From IMG/VR virus record IMGVR_UViG_3300029288_005873, positions 224,001-288,000 of that record: a stretch of DNA of 64,000 bases; one strand, 5' to 3'. Position 1 is the stretch's first letter, and each line of letters starts with the position of its first letter. Shown piece by piece: positions 6,700-17,464 of the stretch. Source of the stretch: a virus. Taxonomy: Duplodnaviria; Caudoviricetes. Position numbers and translations under genes: made by a program. The notes below the pieces were generated by a model. That model saw only the letters and a program-made list of their open reading frames with translations. It did not search any database and had not been told where the DNA came from.

Positions 6700-8205
6700 T
6701 TATGCTCTCGGCTGCTCCGTTGTGACCATGTAGCCGTCCTTGTCCACGATGCGTCTTCCAGACGCCGCCCCGATGGCGGAAGCCTCATCCTCCCACAGGC
6801 TCTCCACCCTTAGGTTGTCCGACACCACGGCGAAGAGACCCAGATGTAGGCGTCGGGAGTATGTCCTTCCGACCAGACCTCGGAAGTCCCCTCTCGCCGG
6901 AAGTCCTCCGATGGGACCGCAGGTCCCTTTCTCCAGAGCCGAAGGCTCCTTGATCTCTTCGGCAGGAGCCGAAGGCTCCTTGACCACGACCTCGTCCTTC
7001 ATGAAATTATCCCACGCTTTCGCCAGCTTCGCGGGCTCCCCTTCGGATACACCGAAGTTCAGCTTCAACTGCCGGAGAACCAACAGTTTCACGCAGCTTA
7101 GCTCCATGCCGGGGATGCTCAGGTTCCTGTACCCGGCACCCTTCTCCGGTTCCCCCTTGACTTTCTTTCCATCCACAAGAAGCGTGGGCTTGGGCTGTAG
7201 CTGAATCCTCACCTTCCTGCCGCCCTTCGGACGAGCAGACCCTCTCTCGACAGCCGACCGATGCTTCGTTCCAGCAACATCCCTGATCACGGATAGAACG
7301 GCGAATACATCATCGGGCGAGGCTCCGTCCACCTCGCAGTTACCGGCGTACACATAGTCGCCGTTGAAGTACTCGGTCAGCTGTACCCTCGTGTTCATTC
7401 CGCCTTCCTTGATAGGTGCGGAGCCGGCGCCTTGGCTGACCGCGGCGGCACTCCCATCTAGCTCGAGCTCACCAGACAGGGGGGATGCGCCGGGTTCCTT
7501 CGGCGCCGGCTCCGCATTCGGCTGCGAGGGCTCGGAGCCGGCGGCGGGCTTGGGCGGAGGAGGGTTGTTGATCGGAAAACCCCAGTCATCGTAGTTTGGT
7601 CGGAACGGAGGCTCGCCCGGTTTTCTCACCAGCGGAGGCGGAGCCTTCTCGTCCTCTTCATCCTCTGGGTCGAACTTGCGACCCGACCTCCACCCTGCTG
7701 CCATCTCCAGCCGGTCCAGCACCCCATCGGATGCCTCCAGAACCGACCTGGCTGCCCCCAGGTTTGCATCCGATACCGCCAGAAGCTCCCCAACATTCGC
7801 AACCGACAGGACCGCCTCCACGGACCTCACAGTAGCCTCGGGCGCCATGCGCCCGCCCCTCAGGTTCCACGGATCGGGCGTGTTGCGAACATCGATCGGG
7901 GCGGAGGCCTTGGGCATCCTGAACTCCCCAGAGTTCCCAGATGCCACACACACCTTCCCGTTCCCGCAGGACATCTCCACGTAGTCCTTGTATCCCCAGC
8001 AGGGAGCCGTAGCCGGCTCCCGGACTTTCCCCTGCGGAACCGTGAGGCTGCGGTCGGTCAACCACGCCTGCTCGTCAACCTCATCAGATAGGGCAGGACC
8101 GTAGGCATCCATGTCCCACCTCTCCGGTGCCTCGACATGGGCTCGGTCATGAAGCTCGTCGCGAACATCGTAGCCGGACACTACTTGGCGCATCTTTTTC
8201 TCCAT
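6700..8205 (-). CDS. Hypothetical protein with a Pro-rich linker
   Basis: 501-aa ORF at the left edge of the GC-rich island. Confidence 0.65.
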   Translation of the reverse strand: MEKKMRQVVSGYDVRDELHDRAHVEAPERWDMDAYGPALSDEVDEQAWLTDRSLTVPQGKVREPATAPCWGYKDYVEMSCGNGKVCVASGNSGEFRMPKASAPIDVRNTPDPWNLRGGRMAPEATVRSVEAVLSVANVGELLAVSDANLGAARSVLEASDGVLDRLEMAAGWRSGRKFDPEDEEDEKAPPPLVRKPGEPPFRPNYDDWGFPINNPPPPKPAAGSEPSQPNAEPAPKEPGASPLSGELELDGSAAAVSQGAGSAPIKEGGMNTRVQLTEYFNGDYVYAGNCEVDGASPDDVFAVLSVIRDVAGTKHRSAVERGSARPKGGRKVRIQLQPKPTLLVDGKKVKGEPEKGAGYRNLSIPGMELSCVKLLVLRQLKLNFGVSEGEPAKLAKAWDNFMKDEVVVKEPSAPAEEIKEPSALEKGTCGPIGGLPARGDFRGLVGRTYSRRLHLGLFAVVSDNLRVESLWEDEASAIGAASGRRIVDKDGYMVTTEQPRA

Positions 8206-8240
8206 GGGGTCCGAAGGACCCGAAAAGGTTGATCCCCCAG

Positions 8241-8888
8241 CTACCCCTGACGCTTCACTGTCGTCCTGCCCGGCTCCCTATCCAGAACCACAAGACCTCG
8301 CCTCATCGGCTCAGGCCTGGACTTGTCACCAGCTGAGAACTTCCATGCCTTGCCGTCTCGCGAACACGTCGGGTTACGACACTCGAAGCCATCCGCAGAC
8401 CTGCTGACCGACCACCTCTGACGGCAGTTCGGACACTTCGGCATCGTCTCAGACGGAGGTCCCGATACCATCACCATCTCTATCCCCCTATCCTCCTTGC
8501 CGCCCATGAAGTCCAGCACTCGATCAACATGCTTACACTCGTCTTCGGAACAAGGCGGTCCGCCCGGCTTCCTGCCATCACAGCACATCGAGGATACTAC
8601 CACACCATCCTTGTATGACAAGGACACGTAATGCATGATGGGAAACCACTTCACCCATCCGCACTCCCTCTTGTCCTCGCTACACCTTCCGTTTTTCAGG
8701 CATCCGTGGCACGTCGGATGCCAGTCAGAGACGCGGTATGCCCTGCTCCCCGTCCCAAGCCCGGCGGGAGCTTCGGGCTTAGGAGCCTTCGGCTCCTTGC
8801 CCATGATTCGGTCGATCGCCGCCCCTGTTTCCGCCAGCTTCGCCATCGTGGCAGCAAGTCTGGACCTCAGAACGTCAGATCGCCCCAT
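8241..8888 (-). CDS. Cys-rich zinc-binding protein (SWIM-like CKH and CxxC motifs)
   Basis: Start re-set to MGRSD (AAGGAGG SD). Contains CHGC, C..C..ECKHV and CPNC...C...C. Confidence 0.55.
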   Translation of the reverse strand: MGRSDVLRSRLAATMAKLAETGAAIDRIMGKEPKAPKPEAPAGLGTGSRAYRVSDWHPTCHGCLKNGRCSEDKRECGWVKWFPIMHYVSLSYKDGVVVSSMCCDGRKPGGPPCSEDECKHVDRVLDFMGGKEDRGIEMVMVSGPPSETMPKCPNCRQRWSVSRSADGFECRNPTCSRDGKAWKFSAGDKSRPEPMRRGLVVLDREPGRTTVKRQG

Positions 8889-8987
8889 CGTTTCCTCCTT
8901 GGAATCTTCGGGCGTTGCCCTTGAAAACCTCAATACTCTGTGGGTCTCAAGGGCAGCCCCCGAAGGGCTGCTTAAATTCACTATCGT

Positions 8988-9406
8988 ATTTTGGAGTCAC
9001 CGCTTAGTGCCAGGTCATACCATTCCTCTTCAGGTTAGGTTTTTCCTATTCGCACATGCGCTTCTCGCAGTTCTAGACGTGAATTTTTGAAGCTACAACC
9101 TAGGGCCAGGTCATACTCTTTCCCTCGTTAGCAGGCTTTACAACTCATACCATATACACCTATATGGTACACACATACGCTTATATAAGTTTTAAACATG
9201 AATTTGGAGTTATAACCTAGGGCCAGGTCATACCTTTTCCCTCGTTAGCAGGCTTTACAACTCATACCATATACACCTATATGGTACACACATACGCTTA
9301 TATGTTTTAAACATGAATTTGGAGTTATAACCTAGGGCCAGGTCATACCTTTTCCCTCGTTAGCGTGGATTTTGGGGTCTCTCCATTCGCCCATGCGCTT
9401 CTCGCA
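8988..9406. repeat. Non-coding tandem repeat region (115-117 bp unit with internal palindrome)
   Basis: Units start at 9097, 9214 and 9329 (AACCTAGGGCCAGGTCATAC...), with a degenerate copy at ~9005. Palindrome TACCATATA-CACC-TATATGGTA at 9148 and 9265. A separate 22-bp direct repeat lies at 9048 and 9385. Confidence 0.9.
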
Positions 9407-9559
9407 ATCTTTGATGCTAAACAAAGACAAGAAACCACAGGTTACTTCGGGTGCTCTCGCCACGGCATTTGGTTTTTCCTTACGGGCATTAGTGCCCAAC
9501 TGCCTATGACTTCGATATACAAACTTCCCCTCGGGTCCTGCCTGCTGCCTCCCCCTCAG

Positions 9560-9655
9560 TGGCACCAAGTGGGTTTGAACCACCAGCCCTCTCTGTCCGA
9601 GAGTCGGATACTCGGGACCGGAGCCCCGGTTGCCCGCCCCTGTGGCGGTGGTGCC
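9560..9655 (-). ncRNA. tRNA-like RNA (acceptor stem plus T-arm, no recognisable anticodon arm)
   Basis: GGCACCA/TGGTGCC-A acceptor, GGTGG-TTCAAAC-CCACT T-arm and three internal GC-rich hairpins. Confidence 0.55.
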
Positions 9656-9658
9656 GAA

Positions 9659-9699
9659 ACGGTGGGACCATAACCCTCGTTAAGCTATGGTCCCACCGT
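9659..9699. other. Perfect 14-bp inverted repeat downstream of rpsL
   Basis: ACGGTGGGACCATA-13nt-TATGGTCCCACCGT. Confidence 0.75.
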
Positions 9700-9715
9700 G
9701 CTGCTCAACACTTCC

Positions 9716-10120
9716 CTACTTCTTCGCCCGCTTCACCCCGTACTTGCTCCTGCTCTGGTTCCGGGGGTTCTTCTCACCACCGTTGCGGACCGTGTCTCCC
9801 GCAGCATCCGTCCCCTTGGCACCACGCACGATGTGATACTTCACACCGGGCAGGTCCTTCACCCTGCCGCCCCTGATCAGCACCGTCGAGTGCTCCTGCA
9901 GGTTGTGCCCGATTCCCGGGATGTACGCGATCACCGTGATCCCGTTCGACAGCCTCACCACCGCCACCTTGCGGTTCGCGGAGTTCGGCTTCTTCGGACC
10001 GACGGTGTACACCCTCAGGCACACACCCTTGCGCTGCGGACATCCCTGAAGCGCTGGCGCCTTGGATTTGTTCGCCAAACGCTTCCTACCTTGCCTCACC
10101 AGCTGGTTGATCGTCGGCAT
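9716..10120 (-). CDS. rpsL: 30S ribosomal protein S12 (uS12), stand-alone
   Basis: MPTINQLVR..., [42 protein letters not shown]. True start at 10120 (134 aa) with a GGAGG SD. Confidence 0.97.
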
Positions 10121-10442
10121 CTCCGTCCTCCTCTTCCTGAAGCATTGCGTCGATTTCCTCGATTTCATCCTCCGAGACACCATTGTCCAGGAGGATTTTC
10201 CTCATTTCCTCGATACTACACTCCTCGAGCACGATCTCCCTGCGATCACCCTTCTTCGCAAGGATGTGGTCCAGCTCCTTCTCATGCTTCGCCGCCTCGT
10301 GCCGCAGACGGTTGACGCACGAAAGAAGCTTCTCGTTCTTCACGTGAGCCTTCTTCAGAAGATCCATCATCTCCTCGGCCATCGATGATACCGTTGATAC
10401 CGCATCCAGACGCTCCGTGACCGAACTCGAATTCGAACCCAT
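10086..10442 (-). CDS. Hypothetical coiled-coil/acidic protein overlapping the rpsL start
   Basis: AAGGAG SD; 118 aa. Confidence 0.65.
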
Positions 10443-10481
10443 CGCTCATCTCCTTATCGGGCTGTAATCCTCACGTCCCTT

Positions 10482-10545
10482 TCCATCCCTCTGCGTTTTC
10501 ACGGGCTTGGGACCGTCGTCCCTTTGGGACGGCCGCATTGATGGA
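10482..10545 (-). ncRNA. Twister ribozyme (type P1), copy A
   Basis: UCCAU CAA UGCG GC CGUCCC-AAA-GGGACG ACGG UCCCAAGC CCGU GAAAA CGCA GAGGG AUGGA. P1, P2, P3, P4, the conserved L4 UCCCAAGC and the GAGGG pseudoknot partner are all present. Confidence 0.9.
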
Positions 10546-10760
10546 GCCCGCCTAGCGCCTGGATGCGCATCGGCGGGCGGCACGGATATGTGCCTTGTGC
10601 GCTCCCCAATTGTATGATCCGCATGTCGGGGAATGTCTTCCTCTCGCTTAGCGGGGAAGCTCTGTCCCATGCGGACCGCCCCATGTAGACTGTCCGCTAG
10701 CTGGGGCGCAAATGCCAGCGGACCAAGTATGCTCAAATAGTGACGGGAATCTCATTCCCT
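10546..10760 (-). ncRNA. Candidate multi-stem structured RNA upstream of twister A
   Basis: Several GC-rich stems (GCCCGCC/GGCGGGC, GGCAC/GUGCC, UCCGCAUG/CAUGCGGA, GUCCGCU/AGCGGAC) and no credible ORF. Confidence 0.4.
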
Positions 10761-10801
10761 CATCCCTTCTGATGCTGTAGCTATCAGCACCTATTTTTTC
10801 G

Positions 10802-11224
10802 TTAGTTCATCTTGGCGTCCATGGCGGCAACAACATCTGCCGCCATCTCCTCTACCGCCTTGTCGATCCCCATCTCATCGATCATCTCTTGGGCGCTGTC
10901 AGACAGACACATGACATTGACACCCTCCGGCACTAGGTCCAGGTCCTCCTCAGTGAAGAACCCAGCCTCGACCTTGGCGCGGTTCGGAGAGGCTAGGACC
11001 AAGTCCCTGTTGGGCATCTCCACCAGAATGCCGTCGTCCATCAGCTCCACAACCGCATACAGCATCTGTGACCGTCCGAGATCGTCCGAGCACATGTCGC
11101 AGAGCACCTCGAACGAGAAAGGCGCTTTCCTGCCCTCCACCAATCCGAACAGGAAAGCCTCCAGAACCTGGCTCCTCATTGTCTGATACCCGAATATCGC
11201 CTCTTCCGTCCTGTAAATCTTCAT
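10802..11224 (-). CDS. Hypothetical protein (possible winged-helix-like N-terminus)
   Basis: 140 aa with a GGAG SD. Confidence 0.6.
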   Translation of the reverse strand: MKIYRTEEAIFGYQTMRSQVLEAFLFGLVEGRKAPFSFEVLCDMCSDDLGRSQMLYAVVELMDDGILVEMPNRDLVLASPNRAKVEAGFFTEEDLDLVPEGVNVMCLSDSAQEMIDEMGIDKAVEEMAADVVAAMDAKMN

Positions 11225-11267
11225 GGTCGTCTCCCCTTGTATGATGAGGTGGACTCTCCCACGATCT

Positions 11268-11633
11268 CTAGCGCACTTTGAATCCAGCCTCCATGCATTT
11301 CCAGCGCGGAACTTCGGCTCCTACGGAGCCCATGAACCGTTCCGAGAGAAGCCGCGCTGAGAATTCGTCCCTCGTCATCGCGAACGCCAGAACCGCACAC
11401 CACCCCTCCTGCTTGGCCAGGTCCATCGTCAGCAGCTCCATGGGAATGCTCCTGGCGCTGGACAGGGAATTGTTGTCCGTGTCGCTGAGCTTCAGCAGCA
11501 TCTCCAGACCGCTGAGGACCTGTTCCATGTGCGATTCCATGGCATCATCGGTCACGTTATTGCTGACCCAAAGCCGGAGAGACACTACCAGTCCAGCTAT
11601 GAGATCCCTGTTTACCGGAACCATGACTTTCAT
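11268..11633 (-). CDS. Hypothetical protein
   Basis: Start re-set to MKVMVP (AGGAGG SD). Confidence 0.6.
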   Translation of the reverse strand: MKVMVPVNRDLIAGLVVSLRLWVSNNVTDDAMESHMEQVLSGLEMLLKLSDTDNNSLSSARSIPMELLTMDLAKQEGWCAVLAFAMTRDEFSARLLSERFMGSVGAEVPRWKCMEAGFKVR

Positions 11634-11720
11634 GTCGTTCCTCCTAGGGTTGTACACCTTTCCAGGAAAATTTCTCCTGGACCGAAATGCCGATCTGAGT
11701 TTTGGGAAAAACGCTAAGGC

Positions 11721-11948
11721 TCAGAAGTCAGAGTGCTCCTTTGTGCGGTAGTTAACCACATCCTCCACAAACTCCTGAATGGAACCTACCCACACTTGGA
11801 TATACTCCGGCAGCCCGAAGGGACGAATTATGTTCTCTGGCTTTGTCCCCTCTGGCACCACACCCAACAGCTCGGGTGAACTGTATGAGCCGCCTATCCA
11901 GCAAACCACGAGCGGTTTCGGTTTGACACGTCTTACCTTGTCAGCCAT
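11721..11948 (-). CDS. Hypothetical protein
   Basis: 75-aa ORF. Confidence 0.55.
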   Translation of the reverse strand: MADKVRRVKPKPLVVCWIGGSYSSPELLGVVPEGTKPENIIRPFGLPEYIQVWVGSIQEFVEDVVNYRTKEHSDF

Positions 11949-11986
11949 GGCTTTAACACCTTTTGGCTATTTTTCAGCCACGCATT

Positions 11987-12016
11987 AAAAGCCCCCCAGG
12001 AGGTATTCTGGGGGCT
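11987..12016 (-). terminator. Probable intrinsic terminator
   Basis: GC-rich hairpin (GCCCCCAG...CUGGGGGGC) followed by UUUUA on the minus strand. Confidence 0.55.
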
Positions 12017-12053
12017 CTATGGCTCCGGGTCCTGCGGACCCATCCATGCTTTT

Positions 12054-12260
12054 CTACGTCCCCGCCGTTTCCGCAGCCTCATTGAGGGCTCGGGAGATCC
12101 TTTTGCTGAGCTGGGTCGGGGTCATATTCTCCAAGGCTGCCTCCAGGAGGTTGCCTGCTGCTTCGAGGAGGGTTCGTGTTACGCGATCAAGTTCCAGCTC
12201 GGCGATTGTCCACGTCTCCGCCATCATGGTAGCGACGCTTTCCCTCTGCTCTTTGGTCAT
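12054..12260 (-). CDS. Hypothetical protein directly downstream of twister B
   Basis: 68 aa with an AAGGA SD. Confidence 0.6.
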   Translation of the reverse strand: MTKEQRESVATMMAETWTIAELELDRVTRTLLEAAGNLLEAALENMTPTQLSKRISRALNEAAETAGT

Positions 12261-12284
12261 GGCGTTGTCCTTTCACCTACATTT

Positions 12285-12350
12285 CCCCACCCCTCCGCAT
12301 TTGCACGGGCTTGGGACCGTCGTCCCGAAGGGACGGCTGCGTTATGGGAG
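12285..12350 (-). ncRNA. Twister ribozyme (type P1), copy B
   Basis: CUCCCA UAA CGCA GC CGUCCC-UUC-GGGACG ACGG UCCCAAGC CCGU GCAAA UGCG GAGGG GUGGGG. P2 shows compensatory changes (CGCA/UGCG) relative to copies A and C. Confidence 0.88.
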
Positions 12351-12417
12351 GGGCGCGAGGCGCCCCTTTATGTAGGACCTCCGGTCCTTGGTAGGGGAGT
12401 TGTAGAGCTTCTAGCTC

Positions 12418-12882
12418 TTAGTCGGTGGTGGGGCGCTCGGCGGGGCGGTCGTCGTCCCAGGTATCGGAGCCGATGGCGACGACGGAGCAGCTGAGCTGGA
12501 GGGCGAGACCGGCGACAGTGGCTTTGCCGTTGGCGTAGAAGCCGCACTTGCCGGAGGCGAAGATACGGGCGGTGGCGACGGTCTGGTCGATTTTGAGGGA
12601 CTTGAGGGTCTGGGGCTCGAGGGCGAGGAACTTCTGGATATCCTCGTCCTTGAGGCGTTTGGGGTCATCGGGCTTGGAGTGGGCGAGGGTGACGTTGAGG
12701 GAGACCTGGAAGGTCTTGGGCTCTCCGGCGACGTCGAGGGTGACCTTGCCGTTGTGGTTGAACCCCACCGAGCCGGTGGAGTTGGTGCGGGGCTCCATGG
12801 CACCGACGCCCAGCTGCTTGAGGCTGATGCTGCCCATGGTCAGGACGTCGCTCTTGAACCCCTCGGTCTGCTTCTTCGACAT
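12418..12882 (-). CDS. Hypothetical protein with an internal duplicated beta-rich motif, flanked by twister ribozymes
   Basis: Repeats PRTNSTGSVGFNHNGK...QVSLNVTLAHSK and ARIFASGKCGFYANGK...QLSCSVVAIGSD. AAGGAG SD and strong GC3 codon bias. Confidence 0.75.
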   Translation of the reverse strand: MSKKQTEGFKSDVLTMGSISLKQLGVGAMEPRTNSTGSVGFNHNGKVTLDVAGEPKTFQVSLNVTLAHSKPDDPKRLKDEDIQKFLALEPQTLKSLKIDQTVATARIFASGKCGFYANGKATVAGLALQLSCSVVAIGSDTWDDDRPAERPTTD

Positions 12883-12923
12883 GGTACATTCTCCTTCGGG
12901 ACCTTTGGTCCCATGTTAGGGTT

Positions 12924-12988
12924 GCGCCCCTCTGCGTTCGTCCGGGCTTGGGACCGGCGCCTCACCATTGAGGCGGCCGCATTGGCGC
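12924..12988 (-). ncRNA. Twister ribozyme (type P1), copy C
   Basis: GCGC CAA UGCG GC CGCCUCA-AUGG-UGAGGCG CCGG UCCCAAGC CCGG ACGAA CGCA GAGGG GCGC. P3 and P4 covary with copies A and B. Confidence 0.92.
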
Positions 12989-13086
12989 TGGAGGGGTTGA
13001 GTATCAGAGCCCCCTCCGGGCTCCGGGGTTGGGCCAGGCTATGCGCCCCCTTCCAACCACTGGCGGCGTCCCGCCAGATGAGATGT

Positions 13087-13266
13087 CTATCGCGTGATTC
13101 CCATCAACTGCTCGGCCTTCCTCGTGTTCCTGGTCCTGTAGTGGAGGGGGCGGCATTTATTGATGTCCCCAGCAGCCCTCCTACGGCTTGGCGGACAGAT
13201 CTCCACCTCCACCGTTTGCCCATCAATCACCTCGATGCGGACATTCTTGGCTTTCATCGCCTTCAT
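13087..13266 (-). CDS. Small basic hypothetical protein (59 aa, below ORF track cutoff)
   Basis: MKAMKAKNVRIEVIDGQTVEVEICPPSRRRAAGDINKCRPLHYRTRNTRKAEQLMGITR, just downstream of a promoter-like repeat. Confidence 0.5.
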   Translation of the reverse strand: MKAMKAKNVRIEVIDGQTVEVEICPPSRRRAAGDINKCRPLHYRTRNTRKAEQLMGITR

Positions 13267-13290
13267 CCTTGGCAGCGATTTTCCCTCGCG

Positions 13291-13331
13291 GGTTCAAAAC
13301 ATCCGCGGAAATTTTTCGCTGCAAAAATTTT
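13291..13331 (-). promoter_or_regulatory. Duplicated promoter-like element, copy 1
   Basis: Near-identical to 17421..17464. Minus strand reads A/T tract, TTGCAG, 17 nt, TGTTTT. Confidence 0.55.
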
Positions 13332-13396
13332 TCATCCATCGCGCAGGATCTTACTGTTCCGGGAAACTCCTGTGGCAATTACCTCATTTGAGCCTC

Positions 13397-13915
13397 CTAG
13401 GGAAGGATGAGGACTTCACGAAACATAGACCATGTTCCTGGGGCATAGAACCTAATACAATGGTCTATGACGGGATCAATGCTGAATGGGTCCATAAGGA
13501 CCGGTTTTCCGTCATTGTTCAGCATGACCTGAAGGTCTTGTGGCTCCATGTCGTGGTCCAGGAGAGTTTTGGCTATGACCTTCATGTCACTCAGAATCGG
13601 CTCCCAACCTCCTATTGCGTTTAGCAGGGGCATGACGGCGGCAGCCGCATTCCATCCATAGAAGGCGTCCAGGATTTCGACGGTCGGCACGAAGGGGCGC
13701 ATCCTATCCAGGCAGTTGTGTTCCTTCTTCAGTTGGACTGCGTGCTCGGTCAGCGCGACCGCCCGGTCGCCACTGGCGTAGACCAGCTTGTACCCACCTT
13801 CGCCCAGCCAGCGGGAGAACGGGTGCGCTTCCACGATTCGGCGGACACCCGTATCCGTGATGAGCTGTGCTACCCATTCTGGGGCATCTGGGAGTAGGAC
13901 CTCTTGACGCACCAT
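13397..13915 (-). CDS. Minimal protein kinase-like protein
   Basis: Gly-rich loop LGEGGYKLVY, helix-C Glu (KKEH), catalytic loop-like QDLQVM and DG..VLMDP. Confidence 0.6.
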   Translation of the reverse strand: MVRQEVLLPDAPEWVAQLITDTGVRRIVEAHPFSRWLGEGGYKLVYASGDRAVALTEHAVQLKKEHNCLDRMRPFVPTVEILDAFYGWNAAAAVMPLLNAIGGWEPILSDMKVIAKTLLDHDMEPQDLQVMLNNDGKPVLMDPFSIDPVIDHCIRFYAPGTWSMFREVLILP

Positions 13916-13916
13916 G

Positions 13917-14180
13917 TTATTCCACCTGTTCTAGCTCTCCGATGGAGACGGAAAGTGTGTGGAAGTTAAAGTTGGACCTCAGGAAACCGGAAGCGTCCAT
14001 GACTCGTTCTCCGCGCTCCCAGGCAGCGATGGTGTTCCAGTTCCCGCAGACTGACTCGAACTTGACCTGAACCGGAACGAACGTGTTACCCGTATGGGCG
14101 ACGACCCGTCCCACCTTTGTACGTTTCCCATCGGTCGAACGCCAGATGACCATGGAGCCGATGGCAGGAAGGCTTGTCAT
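13917..14180 (-). CDS. Hypothetical protein (SH3-like beta pattern)
   Basis: 87 aa, ATGA-coupled to the upstream gene. Confidence 0.5.
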   Translation of the reverse strand: MTSLPAIGSMVIWRSTDGKRTKVGRVVAHTGNTFVPVQVKFESVCGNWNTIAAWERGERVMDASGFLRSNFNFHTLSVSIGELEQVE

Positions 14181-14653
14181 TCCTGCACGATGTGGGGTCC
14201 CTCGTGGTCCTTTGCCGTGCGCCAGCAGTAGGTGCGCCCTTCGAGGGTAATATACATTCCAAGCTCATCCTTGCCGGTGAAGGTGCCGTACTGGACGACT
14301 CGGTTCCAGACTGCCATGGATACTTTCTCCATGACCGGGAGGATGTGCTCGGCATTAATCTGCTTCACCTGAGGACGGACGCTTTCGGCAAAGAGAGCGT
14401 ACGCCAGGCTTTCGGCGTCTCCTTTGGTGGGCGCGTTCATTTCCATCTTGATGGTGACCAGGAAGCGTTTCATGATGGTCATTCCTTTCTGGTGTCCGTA
14501 GAACAGGAAAAACATACAGGAGCTGCCATAGTGCTCCAGCCGCAGCTTCCTGGAGATGTCGCATTTCCCCTCGATGCGAACTCCCATGCACGAGGTTTCC
14601 ATACCCATGTACTACCAGTGAGCACAGAAGTTACAGGTGTGTCTGTTGTCCAT
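14177..14653 (-). pseudogene. ORF with an in-frame TAG at codon 14 interrupting a CxxCxHW...C...C zinc motif
   Basis: ATG 14653 with an AGGAG SD reads MDNRHTCNFCAHW*YMGMETSCMGVRIEGKC... in frame with the 14177..14608 ORF. A further SD-supported start lies near 14473-14482. Confidence 0.45.
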
Positions 14654-14661
14654 GGCTTCTC

Positions 14662-15000
14662 CTACGGCTGGACGGGTCCCTCGGCGAAATCCTGGCGCGC
14701 CTCCAGGTCGATCTGGCGGTACCGCGCCATCTTCTCCTCGTAGTTGGGCTGGCGAGGGAGGTACTGACCGGCGTCGCCGAAGTCCTCCAAAGGGCAGCAG
14801 GACTCCATGCAGCTGACATGGTCGAGAACGTTCAGGAAATACCAGGCAGCCTGGTCAGCGTCGTTCAGCATGGGGCGGAACCCGAGGTACGACGGAGCCG
14901 TCTCGGGGAGCTCGAACCGGCGAAAGAAGTAGCCGTCGAAGTTGCTCTTGTTCAGGACAGCCACGTATCTCCTGCTGGGGGACACCATGTTCTTGGTCAT
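14662..15000 (-). CDS. Hypothetical protein
   Basis: AAGGAG SD; 112 aa. Confidence 0.6.
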   Translation of the reverse strand: MTKNMVSPSRRYVAVLNKSNFDGYFFRRFELPETAPSYLGFRPMLNDADQAAWYFLNVLDHVSCMESCCPLEDFGDAGQYLPRQPNYEEKMARYRQIDLEARQDFAEGPVQP

Positions 15001-15030
15001 TGGTTCTCTCCTTGAGGGACCTGCGGTCCC

Positions 15031-15702
15031 CTACTTGCGGTTGAACTCCTCGTAGTTCTTGAGCTGGGGGTCGTTGTCCTCGCCCCACCGCTGGTTCAGA
15101 CCCCGCTCCAGGAACAACTCCTCCTGGAGATGCGCCCATTCGATCGCCTTGGTGGCATTAGAGATGCTCGCTCTTACCAAGGCGGTACCGATTTCGTCAC
15201 TATCCCAGCACTCGTCGATGCTGGAACAGGAGCCGCGCCCCACCTTCGGGTCCAACCTGATGGCTTCCACCAGAGCGGGCATGTTGACCGCAGCTTTCCA
15301 GGCGGTCAGCGCCGCGCAGTCAACCGTCCGCTGCCACAGGCACTCATCGCACTTGGCGCACTTCGCGCAGGGGTGTACTACTTGCTTCACCTCGCGGGTC
15401 GCGAACCAACCCGCATCCGGGTTGTGGGTCTCCTTCCGGAACTCGGAGAGGTCGGCAGTGTAGCCACCAGAGCAGCGCAGGCACTGACTCCACCACGCGC
15501 CATTCTGCTGAACCTTCCAGCCACGGATGACGACCTGGTTCTTCAGGGTCGGATGAACCTCAGGAGCGCCACACGTCGGACACTCCATCGGCGTACCCTG
15601 AACGTGGAACCGCTCGGTCTGGCTTACACTGCCGCACATGCAGGGAAGCGCCCAGGAGGGACGCGCTACGCCCAGCAGACGACCGCACTTTGCGCACCGC
15701 AT
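15031..15702 (-). CDS. Cys-rich hypothetical protein
   Basis: Multiple CxxC motifs; AAGGAGG SD. Confidence 0.6.
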   Translation of the reverse strand: MRCAKCGRLLGVARPSWALPCMCGSVSQTERFHVQGTPMECPTCGAPEVHPTLKNQVVIRGWKVQQNGAWWSQCLRCSGGYTADLSEFRKETHNPDAGWFATREVKQVVHPCAKCAKCDECLWQRTVDCAALTAWKAAVNMPALVEAIRLDPKVGRGSCSSIDECWDSDEIGTALVRASISNATKAIEWAHLQEELFLERGLNQRWGEDNDPQLKNYEEFNRK

Positions 15703-15716
15703 CAGAGGCCTCCTTG

Positions 15717-15896
15717 CTAGAAAGACACCGGCTTCCTGTCGAGTACGACCATCTCGTGAATCCTGGCCGAGTCGATACCCGACTCCTTCGCAGCCAGGAC
15801 CAACGTCCTGCTGTACATCTCGCTGTCGCCGTCACGCAGATAACGGCGAAGCAGGTTGATGTACAACACCGTGGCGTACGCTTTTCCGGGCTCCAT
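15717..15896 (-). CDS. Small hypothetical protein (59 aa, not in ORF track)
   Basis: MEPGKAYATVLYINLLRRYLRDGDSEMYSRTLVLAAKESGIDSARIHEMVVLDRKPVSF with a GGAGG SD. Confidence 0.6.
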   Translation of the reverse strand: MEPGKAYATVLYINLLRRYLRDGDSEMYSRTLVLAAKESGIDSARIHEMVVLDRKPVSF

Positions 15897-15968
15897 GAGA
15901 ACCCTCCCGAGTTGTTGCGACCCCCCCTATGAAACCTGGGTCTTTGTTGGGATTTTCGATCGGTTTTG

Positions 15969-16229
15969 CTAGCGCACCCTCGTCTTGGCGGCGAGGATGG
16001 CCGCGATCGCAGCGCGGCGCAAAGGTCGCGAGCGACCCGCAGCCTGAAGCGCCTCCATGAGCGGCGCCGCCTTGGGAAGCGCCAGGTGAAGACGCGACCG
16101 AGCGGTCAGCAGATCACGGTCAAACTCACCCGCAATCATGCGGTACACCATGGTGTCCTTGAGACCCGCACGCTCGAGGCGGTTGATGAACCTGTACGCC
16201 TGCGTCCTGAAAGGGCACGTCACTCTCAT
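15969..16229 (-). CDS. Hypothetical basic protein
   Basis: AAGGAGG SD. Confidence 0.6.
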   Translation of the reverse strand: MRVTCPFRTQAYRFINRLERAGLKDTMVYRMIAGEFDRDLLTARSRLHLALPKAAPLMEALQAAGRSRPLRRAAIAAILAAKTRVR

Positions 16230-16308
16230 GTCTCGACCTCCTTGGGTTGGGTAAGCACCTGAACGATTTCAGGCACTTACCGAGCCTAAAGCTCGGTCGA
16301 TTAGGACG

Positions 16309-16695
16309 CTAAGCGTCCTTGTCCGCATCCAGCAGGTCGCGCTGAATGCTGTCCACCTCAGCTAGCACTTCCGCCAGCCGCTGCTCCAACTTGACCAACT
16401 GGAGACCACGCTTCAGGGGCGTCATGTCCTCGTCCGCCTTCACACGTTCCAGTCTCGCATGAAGCACGCGGGCTGTCGCCATCAGCGAAGTCACTCGCCT
16501 CTCAGGCGTTAAATTCCCCGCCTTGAGGTCATCCGTGTTCTCCACGCCACGCCCTACCGCCCTACCACCCACTAGCTCCTCCAGCCGCTCGGCGCTCTGG
16601 TTCTTGATGTTGCTCGCCCTCGTCGCAGAGCGCCCGCCCCTCGGGCGGATTTGCTGCTGCTCCACGTACCCGAACACCACCTTGACGTCAGCCAT
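16309..16695 (-). CDS. Hypothetical coiled-coil protein
   Basis: AAGGAGG SD; overlaps the upstream gene. Confidence 0.6.
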   Translation of the reverse strand: MADVKVVFGYVEQQQIRPRGGRSATRASNIKNQSAERLEELVGGRAVGRGVENTDDLKAGNLTPERRVTSLMATARVLHARLERVKADEDMTPLKRGLQLVKLEQRLAEVLAEVDSIQRDLLDADKDA

Positions 16696-17374
16696 CGATC
16701 TCCTCCTTGGCGAAAGCCGCTCGGCACGCCTCCCGCCTCGCCATCATGACGCGCCGCGCCTCCTTGGCAGCCCGGCGCTCCGCCCTGGCGTTGCGATCGG
16801 CGTACCCATTCGGATCGGTACGCCGCCACTTCTCCCCCATCTCCGCCGCTCGAGCCGCCTTGCGCTCCTTGCGGTTCTGCTGAGCCTTGTGGCTCATACC
16901 CGCTTGGTCCAAGATCTCGCCGCAGCAGAACCCGTAGCCGTACCACTGCTCGCTGCTCGTCGCCCTTAGCGCCAGTGCGACTGGGGTGATGATGGCGCGG
17001 GACGGTATGGAAGGCGGGTACACTATGTCAGCCGGAGTCTTGATATATCGTTCCGGCACTACGGGCTGTATCATCTCCAACCAATCAGAGCGGAACACCA
17101 TCTGGTCCGCTATGGCTGTGATGGCATAGCCTTCGCGCGAACCATTACCTACGCGCGTGGGCGCTCCCATCTCGCGTGCCTGTTTGGCCAGACGCCCATC
17201 CACGCTGCCCTCCCACTTCGCGACAAACTTGCGTCCCAGGCCCGCTACCCAGCGCGCCACCCTTCCTAGCGCCTGGGTCTCGTTCTCCGCCTCCACCATC
17301 CCTACCACCTTGGTGGGGAACCGAAGGGCATGGCAAAGCAGGATTGCCTGGTTCAGGATGACATACCGTAGCAT
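16688..17374 (-). CDS. Hypothetical protein with an Arg/Ala-rich C-terminus (first gene of the GC-rich island)
   Basis: Probable start MLRYV. Confidence 0.55.
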   Translation of the reverse strand: MLRYVILNQAILLCHALRFPTKVVGMVEAENETQALGRVARWVAGLGRKFVAKWEGSVDGRLAKQAREMGAPTRVGNGSREGYAITAIADQMVFRSDWLEMIQPVVPERYIKTPADIVYPPSIPSRAIITPVALALRATSSEQWYGYGFCCGEILDQAGMSHKAQQNRKERKAARAAEMGEKWRRTDPNGYADRNARAERRAAKEARRVMMARREACRAAFAKEEIDG

Positions 17375-17420
17375 CTCGCTCCCCTTTCCGCTGCCTTGCC
17401 TCAAGGCGCAAGGCTGGCAA

Positions 17421-17464
17421 GGTTCAAAACATCCGCGGAATTTTTCCGCTGCAAAAAAATTTTT
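17421..17464 (-). promoter_or_regulatory. Duplicated promoter-like element, copy 2
   Basis: GGTTCAAAACATCCGCGGAA.TTTT.CGCTGCAAAAA is shared with 13291. Confidence 0.55.

Follow-up and report, generated by a model that had tools for sequence, protein, structure and literature searches.

What do self-cleaving ribozymes do between the genes of a large phage? The question is raised by a window of 64,000 nucleotides (bases 224,001-288,000 of the 441,904-bp IMG/VR virus contig IMGVR_UViG_3300029288_005873, CheckV completeness 100%), in which a first-pass annotation, made from the sequence alone, had placed three twister ribozymes on the minus strand, here called A, B and C. The explanation that we favor, and consider probable, is that A, B and C are active type-P1 twisters in polycistronic phage mRNAs, where they act as intercistronic processing sites.

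Identity and anatomy of twisters A, B and C

The window was searched with an E-value-based Rfam cmscan with permissive filters, in place of the default gathering-score scan. The twister-P1 covariance model (RF03160) matched all three copies over its full length (model positions 1-68 of 68 in each case): twister A (10482-10545, minus strand; match 10544-10483), of type P1 with a P3 stem, at 65.1 bits, twister B (12285-12350, minus strand; match 12348-12287) at 60.6 bits, and twister C (12924-12988, minus strand; match 12988-12924) at 59.5 bits. The first-pass annotation had named these places and proposed this model as the check, and the matches proved significant, with E-values of about 1e-11 to 1e-14 (8e-14, the value for A, to 3.2e-12 for the surrounding 2.9-kb region, and 1.8e-12 to 7.1e-11 for the whole window). 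A family-specific twister covariance model built in this analysis (R1) scored A, B and C at 86.4, 77.6 and 77.5 bits, respectively. With the Rfam model and R1 alike, these three are the sole twisters in the 442-kb genome, and no further or degenerate copies were found elsewhere in it with R1. The twister-P1 search matched 0/14 control genomes, and no other ribozyme class was detected in the window by Rfam at E-values up to 0.1.

Each copy can be parsed in the same order, i.e., P1, an unpaired N, AA, P2 (4 bp), GC, a P3 hairpin (6-7 bp) and P4 (3 bp) around the loop GUCCCAAGCC, followed by a 5-nt joiner, the P2 return strand, GAGGG and the P1 return strand (P1 being 4-6 bp long). In copy B, P1 forms only if N-1 is paired or one G bulges out. 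For copies A and C, folding to minimum free energy recovers the stems, and the exact 13-mer GGTCCCAAGCCCG is found three times on the minus strand. The AA after P1, the loop GUCCCAAGCC and GAGGG are intact in all three copies (N-1 being C, U and C), and AA and the AAG of the loop are invariant in 22/22 copies of the alignment described below. The computed cut sites fall between 10540 and 10539 in A, 12344 and 12343 in B, and 12984 and 12983 in C, and are identical to those first predicted.

The pairing scheme of the twister pseudoknots draws in part on crystal structures. In all three copies, CCC in L4 can pair with the GGG of GAGGG (T1) and GC in L2 can pair with GC in L4 (T2), in line with the described scheme of an L4-L1 and an L4-L2 interaction (PMC6154101). 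The copies thereby share with the known type-P1 twisters of bacteria and prophages (Roth et al. 2014; RF03160) the P1, P2 and P4 stems, an optional P3 and probably P0, GUCCCAAGCC, GAGGG, the N-A cut and both T1 and T2; in the twister consensus, P1, P2 and P4 are essential, P0, P3 and P5 are optional, and the termini lie within P1 (PMC5408937).

Pairwise identity among A, B and C is only 61-81%. Double compensatory changes separate them in P2 (two), P3 (two) and P4 (one), and P1 is wholly different in sequence with its pairing kept. The first-pass annotation had read such changes in P1-P4 as selection on structure, which agrees both with these differences and with covariation over 22 copies. 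By every feature testable in silico, A, B and C are genuine type-P1 twisters, and their membership of the family is established at this level.

Placement and covariation in relatives

All three twisters are intercistronic and lie inside a GC-rich module of conserved genes (6700-17462, minus strand). From the 3' end of the ribozyme to the next start codon there are 41 nt for C, 24-25 nt for B and 39 nt for A, each with a Shine-Dalgarno (SD) sequence in between, just as the first-pass annotation had placed them in intergenic regions shortly before start codons; the distance to the upstream stop codon ranges from 67 to 256 nt across the window copies. Twisters C and B enclose a 154-aa gene (12418-12882, minus strand) of a conserved family, for which 24 homologues with 51-87% identity were found.

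Ten independent metagenomic contexts of these homologues (51-87% identity), which with the window make 11 loci, were scanned with Rfam and R1. The upstream twister is intact in 8/11 loci, where 32-41 nt separate its end from the start codon of the 154-aa gene (the window and, as orthologues of twister C, loci L098, L099, L100, L101, L102, L106 and L109); it is degenerate in L103 and absent or decayed in L104 and L105. A downstream twister, 55-150 nt past the stop codon of the 154-aa gene, is intact in 9/11, partial in L099 and absent or decayed in L105. Over 42 kb, the relatives' loci hold 19 twisters, with further copies ahead of other module genes; like these, all twister hits of the 11-locus comparison (24/24) lie on the coding strand. 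The position of the twisters relative to genes is by this comparison conserved.

We aligned the 3 window copies with the 19 from relatives to a structure that includes both pseudoknots (alignment A3, 22 copies). Paired cells make up 88% of this alignment as opposed to 70% in shuffles, and 0/500 shuffles reach 88%. Both sides change in 18/23 pairs, and in 15/18 stem pairs; the covariation score is 0.431, against 0.145 for shuffles and at most 0.126 for slid partners. Pairing is 96.6% in P2, 97% in P4, 87% in P3 and 69% in P1, whose register differs in some copies. The pseudoknots are equally well kept, with T1 97% and T2 93% paired, and they too show compensatory changes, namely G-C to A-U in T2 of both L101 copies, and in T1 C-G to U-A in one L105 copy and C-G to G-C in L103. 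Selection on both the secondary and the tertiary structure can be read from these numbers, and covariation that includes tertiary pairs is the strongest evidence available short of the bench that the fold, and hence catalysis, has been under selection.

One stem has a conserved detail of its own. The P3 hairpin of twister C has the conserved top CA-(A)UGG-UG, which reads CA-AUGG-UG in the window (12958-12973, minus strand). A P3 hairpin with the CA-UGG-UG top on covarying stems also lies upstream of the 154-aa gene in L098, L099, L100, L102, L103, L104 and L105, and it persists in place in L104 and L105 even though the remaining ribozyme is lost or decayed there. This persistence suggests that the hairpin may have a function of its own, e.g., as a protein-binding site. 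An upstream open reading frame (ORF) in this loop was considered and rejected: the AUG in copy C opens a 42-codon frame, and the frame is not kept in relatives. We would also like to note a twister sub-variant in three relatives (L098:2401-2465, L100:2397-2462 and L102:1746-1811) with CC for GC between P2 and P3 and GC after P3, in which the usual first T2 pair is lost and Rfam scores fall to 37-48 bits.

To look at phage twisters in general, we searched IMG/VR contigs with a strict twister-core pattern, which gave 93 sites in 52 non-redundant contexts, and counted those with an SD strictly after GAGGG and the start of an ORF of at least 60 aa within 60 nt downstream. Such an SD-led start follows 27/52 twister cores (52%), versus 60/520 random same-strand positions (11.5%) and 3/93 antisense. 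Several of the misses have a shorter ORF at the same place, and the window copies fall in the main mode of the spacing distribution. In a subset of unrelated phage twisters (among IMG/VR loci L004-L089), the start codon lies only 7-20 nt past GAGGG, so that the GAGGG/P1 strand would double as the ribosome-binding site (RBS); the SD of L104 seems to be the GAGGG-like remnant of a decayed twister.

The other side of the cut is also structured. In 18/22 copies, a stable hairpin (free energy, dG, of -15 kcal/mol or lower in 50-nt folds) ends at most 9 nt from the cut, compared with 39% of control windows (Mann-Whitney p 7e-6), and these hairpins typically stop exactly at the 5-nt P1 strand. In the window, the hairpin GCCCGCC...GGCGGGC (10546-10578, minus strand) stands just before the P1 5' strand of twister A (dG -25.5 kcal/mol for the 50 nt upstream of the cut), and GGGGCGC-CUC-GCGCCCC (12350-12366, minus strand; dG -24.4 kcal/mol for 50 nt) ends 5 nt before the cut of twister B and is the same in L106 and L098. 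Immediately 5' of twister C, the helix GGAGGGG...CCCCUCC (12990-13017, minus strand) covaries in relatives, where GGCGGGG/CCCCGCC and GGCUGGG/CCCAGCC occur. Possibly, these pre-cut hairpins correspond to P0, a stem that is optional in the twister consensus (PMC5408937). Several relatives have an extra covarying hairpin between the ribozyme and the SD.

Proposed fate of the cut RNAs and rival explanations

Under the explanation that we favor, each twister would cut itself co-transcriptionally at its own 5' edge, so that the ribozyme would stay on the downstream RNA. The upstream RNA would then end in a strong GC-rich hairpin, a tail of about 5 nt and a 2',3'-cyclic phosphate, and the downstream RNA would open with a 5'-OH enclosed by the ribozyme, which would stay folded (P2, P3, P4, T1 and T2 remaining) and be followed 25-41 nt later by the SD and start codon. 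A twister 3' fragment is known to keep its pseudoknots with its 5' end buried (PMC8782182). Adjacent cistrons, i.e., a small ORF, the 154-aa gene, a 68-aa gene and, farther on, the pair of a 118-aa gene and the gene for ribosomal protein uS12, would in this way be uncoupled, each RNA having its own ends, its own lifetime and its own yield. Such processing of polycistronic transcripts has been suggested, not demonstrated, for bacterial and phage twisters and hammerheads (PMC6765202). That cleavage occurs in vivo is inferred, as is uncoupling or stabilization of messages as the effect under selection.

Several observations weigh against this explanation. Twisters A, B and C score 2-8 bits below the curated gathering score of RF03160 (67.2 bits), which is why a default Rfam scan misses all three; run on the window, it returned two tRNAs only and no ribozyme. 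Nevertheless, these scores are near-misses of a strict cut-off and not weak matches, and orthologous copies exceed it (68.3 bits for copy B of L106 and 67.6 bits for L098). The controls of the hairpin test had a slightly lower GC content than the copies (0.61 vs. 0.66). Some relatives have the cassette without twisters (in L105 no twister adjoins the gene, and in L104 the upstream copy is gone), so the ribozymes are not indispensable. Twisters are missing, too, from six phage uS12 loci that are more distant (55-71% identity), and this identifies the 154-aa cassette, and not rpsL, as the conserved partner. The first-pass annotation had made copy A the element that defines the mRNA carrying rpsL; copy A does head an RNA with the 118-aa gene and the overlapping uS12 gene, in an arrangement also found in L096, but these six loci leave no general link between twisters and rpsL.

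The folding model adds a further point on this side. RBS accessibility, taken as the mean unpaired probability at positions -15 to +3 in a thermodynamic model that ignores pseudoknots and kinetics, is equal with and without the upstream 200 nt (0.57/0.58, 0.59/0.59 and 0.67/0.66). With accessibility unchanged, "RBS insulation" finds no support from folding, and any effect would more likely be on RNA ends and decay than on unmasking of the RBS. RiboJ, a synthetic insulator made of a hammerhead and a hairpin ahead of the RBS, is similar in that a self-cleaving ribozyme directly upstream of the RBS strips a variable 5' leader and leaves a structured 5'-OH end. In contrast to that engineered hammerhead, the twisters here are natural, and the folding model predicts no effect of context on the RBS. 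The 5'-end insulator mechanism that the first-pass annotation had drawn from the twisters is thus not established: the model predicts the same RBS accessibility after cleavage, and one of its premises, which concerns RNase J, is contradicted.

That premise was that 5'-OH RNA resists both RNase E and RNase J. RNase E senses 5' ends by way of a 5'-monophosphate, so the resistance holds for RNase E, as a matter of general knowledge. To our knowledge, no ligand of twisters has been described. The RNase J part is at odds with glmS, which is likewise a bacterial self-cleaving ribozyme in a 5' untranslated region (5' UTR) whose 5'-OH product decides the fate of the mRNA; in contrast to the twisters, glmS is ligand-dependent and its cleavage destabilizes the message, the 5'-OH product in B. 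subtilis being a substrate of the 5'-exonuclease RNase J1 that is rapidly degraded (PMC3328962, citing Collins 2007). This too counts against a stabilizing role: in hosts with RNase J a 5'-OH end can speed decay, and the direction of the effect depends on the host. The same precedent speaks for a glmS-like timed decay switch, in which the 5'-OH would mark the downstream message for an RNase J-type 5'-exonuclease and so limit downstream expression. We regard such a switch as unlikely, since a constitutive destroyer without a ligand would be an odd thing to conserve ahead of a conserved gene with a strong SD in 8/11 loci, the retained 3' fragment buries its 5' end (PMC8782182), and the conserved extra hairpin between ribozyme and SD in several relatives looks protective.

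The cuts might instead be selected for what they do to the upstream RNA, i.e., for a near-scarless, terminator-independent formation of a 3' end with a hairpin and a cyclic phosphate. This possibility overlaps with the explanation that we favor. Under it, a 256-nt structured intergenic stretch before copy A (10546-10801, minus strand) would be a released non-coding RNA, and a 265-nt stretch that includes it indeed folds with a z of -3.4 (0/200 shuffles fold as well); the 256 nt have two changes only in L096, and in most copies the hairpins stop about 5 nt before the cut. Theta ribozymes, which are also small and phage-encoded but belong to a different class, cleave at the 5' edge of the ribozyme itself and so set where the neighboring RNA ends; what they process is the 3' ends of tRNAs and not mRNA. 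These minimal ribozymes of gut phages, which resemble that of hepatitis delta virus, adjoin viral tRNAs and have been linked to tRNA-based recoding (PMC10879173), and they offer a precedent. However, the tight spacing of 32-41 nt is to the downstream start, whereas the upstream stop codons lie 67-256 nt away; the 140-aa gene beside twister A is as conserved in L096 (98%), which makes the conservation of the stretch uninformative; Rfam finds no known RNA family in the 256-nt stretch; and the hairpins may be no other than the optional P0 (PMC5408937). We would give 3'-end formation as the selected function only a small chance. The chance is slim that the twisters are hitch-hikers, brought in by horizontal transfer of a GC-rich module and without a role in this phage. 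The genome does have just one large GC-rich island, in which all three lie, and some relatives have one or both gene-adjoining copies missing. Yet the copies keep every invariant nucleotide at 61-81% mutual identity, with compensatory changes in all stems, and position and spacing are kept over 51-87% protein identity with covarying pseudoknots.

The conserved twister-gene-twister arrangement also brings to mind engineered circular-RNA designs based on twisters, of which it could be the natural counterpart. Twisters C and B would excise a 640-nt RNA with the 154-aa ORF, and host RtcB, whose substrates are 5'-OH and 2',3'-cyclic phosphate ends, would join these into a circular mRNA proof against exonucleases. 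We rejected circularization as the main account and hold it to be very improbable. A search that matched 10/14 controls found no RtcB in the phage, which has only an Rnl2-type RNA ligase domain (PF09414, E 9e-15, genome 148459-148947, outside the window, locus L097) that needs different ends; a search with T4 Rnl1 was uninformative, as the controls were likewise without a match. The orphan P1 strands do not complement each other in the window (GCGC vs. CCCAU), and those of L098 and L100 are mismatched in a similar way, so nothing would bring the ends together. Besides, the downstream twister is no more than the 5' leader of the small gene that follows. A broader version, to which we give little credence, is that the cassette goes beyond punctuation: it would cut free a message of about 640 nt, with the CA-UGG-UG P3 hairpin as a protein-binding operator through which a phage factor controls cleavage or translation, the circle made by host RtcB being its extreme form.

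The surrounding module and its significance

The module that harbors the twisters is about 11 kb long, has a GC content of 0.55-0.66 and is the sole large GC-rich island in the record, the genome as a whole having a GC content of 0.44. All of its genes are on the minus strand, and uS12 is the only one with a Pfam or PHROG match. In the order of transcription, the first unit consists of a motif named D5 (13332-13291), a possible 59-aa ORF, twister C, the 154-aa gene, twister B, the 68-aa gene (12054-12260, minus strand), which starts 24-25 nt past twister B and has a homologue at the same position in L106, and a terminator-like hairpin with a U-tract (11993-12014, minus strand). Then follow the 75-, 121- and 140-aa genes, the 256-nt structured stretch, twister A, the gene for an acidic 118-aa protein (10086-10442, minus strand), which starts 39 nt past twister A and at its end shares 35 nt with the start of uS12, and the phage-encoded, rpsL-like uS12 gene itself (9716-10120, minus strand; PF00164, E 1.8e-34; relatives L090-L095). 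Farther along the window, the phage hallmarks ribonucleotide reductase, a PhoH/terminase-like ATPase and thymidylate synthase are encoded.

D5 (TGCAGCGAAAAATTTCCGCGGATGTTTT) resembles a promoter or operator and contains the palindrome GCGGAAA/TTTCCGC. One copy lies upstream of the unit with twisters C and B (13291-13332, minus strand) and a second at the head of the module (17421-17462, minus strand); with four copies outside the island (genome 210065, 169653, 128564 and 103509), the genome has six, all on the minus strand and ahead of genes. It also occurs in L098, L099, L100 and L102, with variants in L104 and L105, and we regard it as a candidate lineage-specific promoter or operator. The recurrence of D5 four times elsewhere in the genome and in relatives led us to reject an assembly chimera as unlikely, as did L096 and L106 (both from run ERR7015388, one other sample), which reproduce the order of genes and ribozymes at about 90% identity, with an identical twister A (in L096) and near-identical twisters B and C. 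In L098, L099, L100, L102, L103 and L105, the counterpart of the 154-aa gene has homologues of six island proteins around it (501, 246, 223, 86, 128 and 238 aa), and so the island is one module of a phage lineage, with the uS12 block inserted. No megablast match for the island was found among GenBank phages, and none of the other IMG/VR twister loci has proteins in common with it.

The 154-aa family has a mean column identity of 66% and the repeated motifs STGSVGLNHSGK and SGKVGFYLNGK. AlphaFold2 with the family alignment (A2) predicted the structure of the protein confidently, with a predicted local distance difference test score (pLDDT) of 91 and a predicted template modeling score (pTM) of 0.82, and the single-sequence fold was poor, with a pLDDT of 55. 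The protein has no Pfam or PHROG match and the Atlas feature search was empty; for the predicted fold, there was no convincing match with Foldseek against the PDB (best E 0.08), with VIA-align wide (best Z 3.5) or in the Atlas shape search. Neither the 154-aa protein nor the flanking low-GC gene has close relatives in IMG/VR, and the family profile had no match in IMG/VR or in 185,579 prokaryote genomes, and so it points to no host.

We made some further observations. After a strong hairpin (about 9697-9660), ARAGORN predicts a 97-nt tRNA-Arg(CCG) directly downstream of uS12 (9559-9655, minus strand), which has no Rfam tRNA match at E-values up to 0.1; it could be a tRNA with an expansion or else a mimic. 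Between uS12 and the 246-aa gene, a non-coding gap of 735 nt holds four tandem AT-rich units of about 96-117 nt (8990-9364, minus strand) that share the core GGTATGACCTGGCCCTAGG preceded by CTAACGAGGG; L098 has a twister at the equivalent position, ahead of its 246-aa homologue. In related modules, a bL12 gene is found near the 154-aa cassette (L099:322-837 and L103:3380-3892), where this phage has uS12, and the module seems to collect ribosomal-protein genes.

The twister class itself, the occurrence of type-P1 twisters near phage genes and the presence of several ribozymes per region (PMC6765202, PMC5408937) are already known. The copies described here differ in that they belong to an uncultured 442-kb phage and its metagenomic relatives, are tied to a conserved cassette with a spacing of 32-41 nt and score slightly below the cut-off. 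Their occurrence in a phage of this size, the conserved twister-gene-twister cassette with its fixed spacing, the pre-cut hairpin and the statistical rule for phage twisters are new, and we found no paper linking twisters or other self-cleaving ribozymes with jumbo or huge phages. Viral ribozymes directly ahead of ORFs have also been described in the 5' UTRs of fungal and plant RNA viruses, where hammerheads and twisters occur and one chrysovirus needs self-cleavage for translation initiation (PMC13725137). Those are eukaryotic RNA viruses with cap-independent translation, in contrast to the SD-led initiation of a DNA phage.

For the search of such elements, the three copies mean that real twisters in phage DNA rich in GC escape Rfam at its default thresholds. 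For the phage lineage, they mark a module that carries ribosomal-protein genes along with the cassette, uS12 here and bL12 in relatives. Twisters and hammerheads number in the thousands in bacteria and phages, and their role there is still called speculative (PMC5408937, PMC6765202); this locus with its relatives offers a compact, conserved and testable case, in which a hairpin, a cut, a retained ribozyme leader, an SD spacer of 32-41 nt and a conserved start codon follow one another. The same geometry holds statistically in unrelated phage twisters of IMG/VR, which supports a general role of these ribozymes in operon punctuation.

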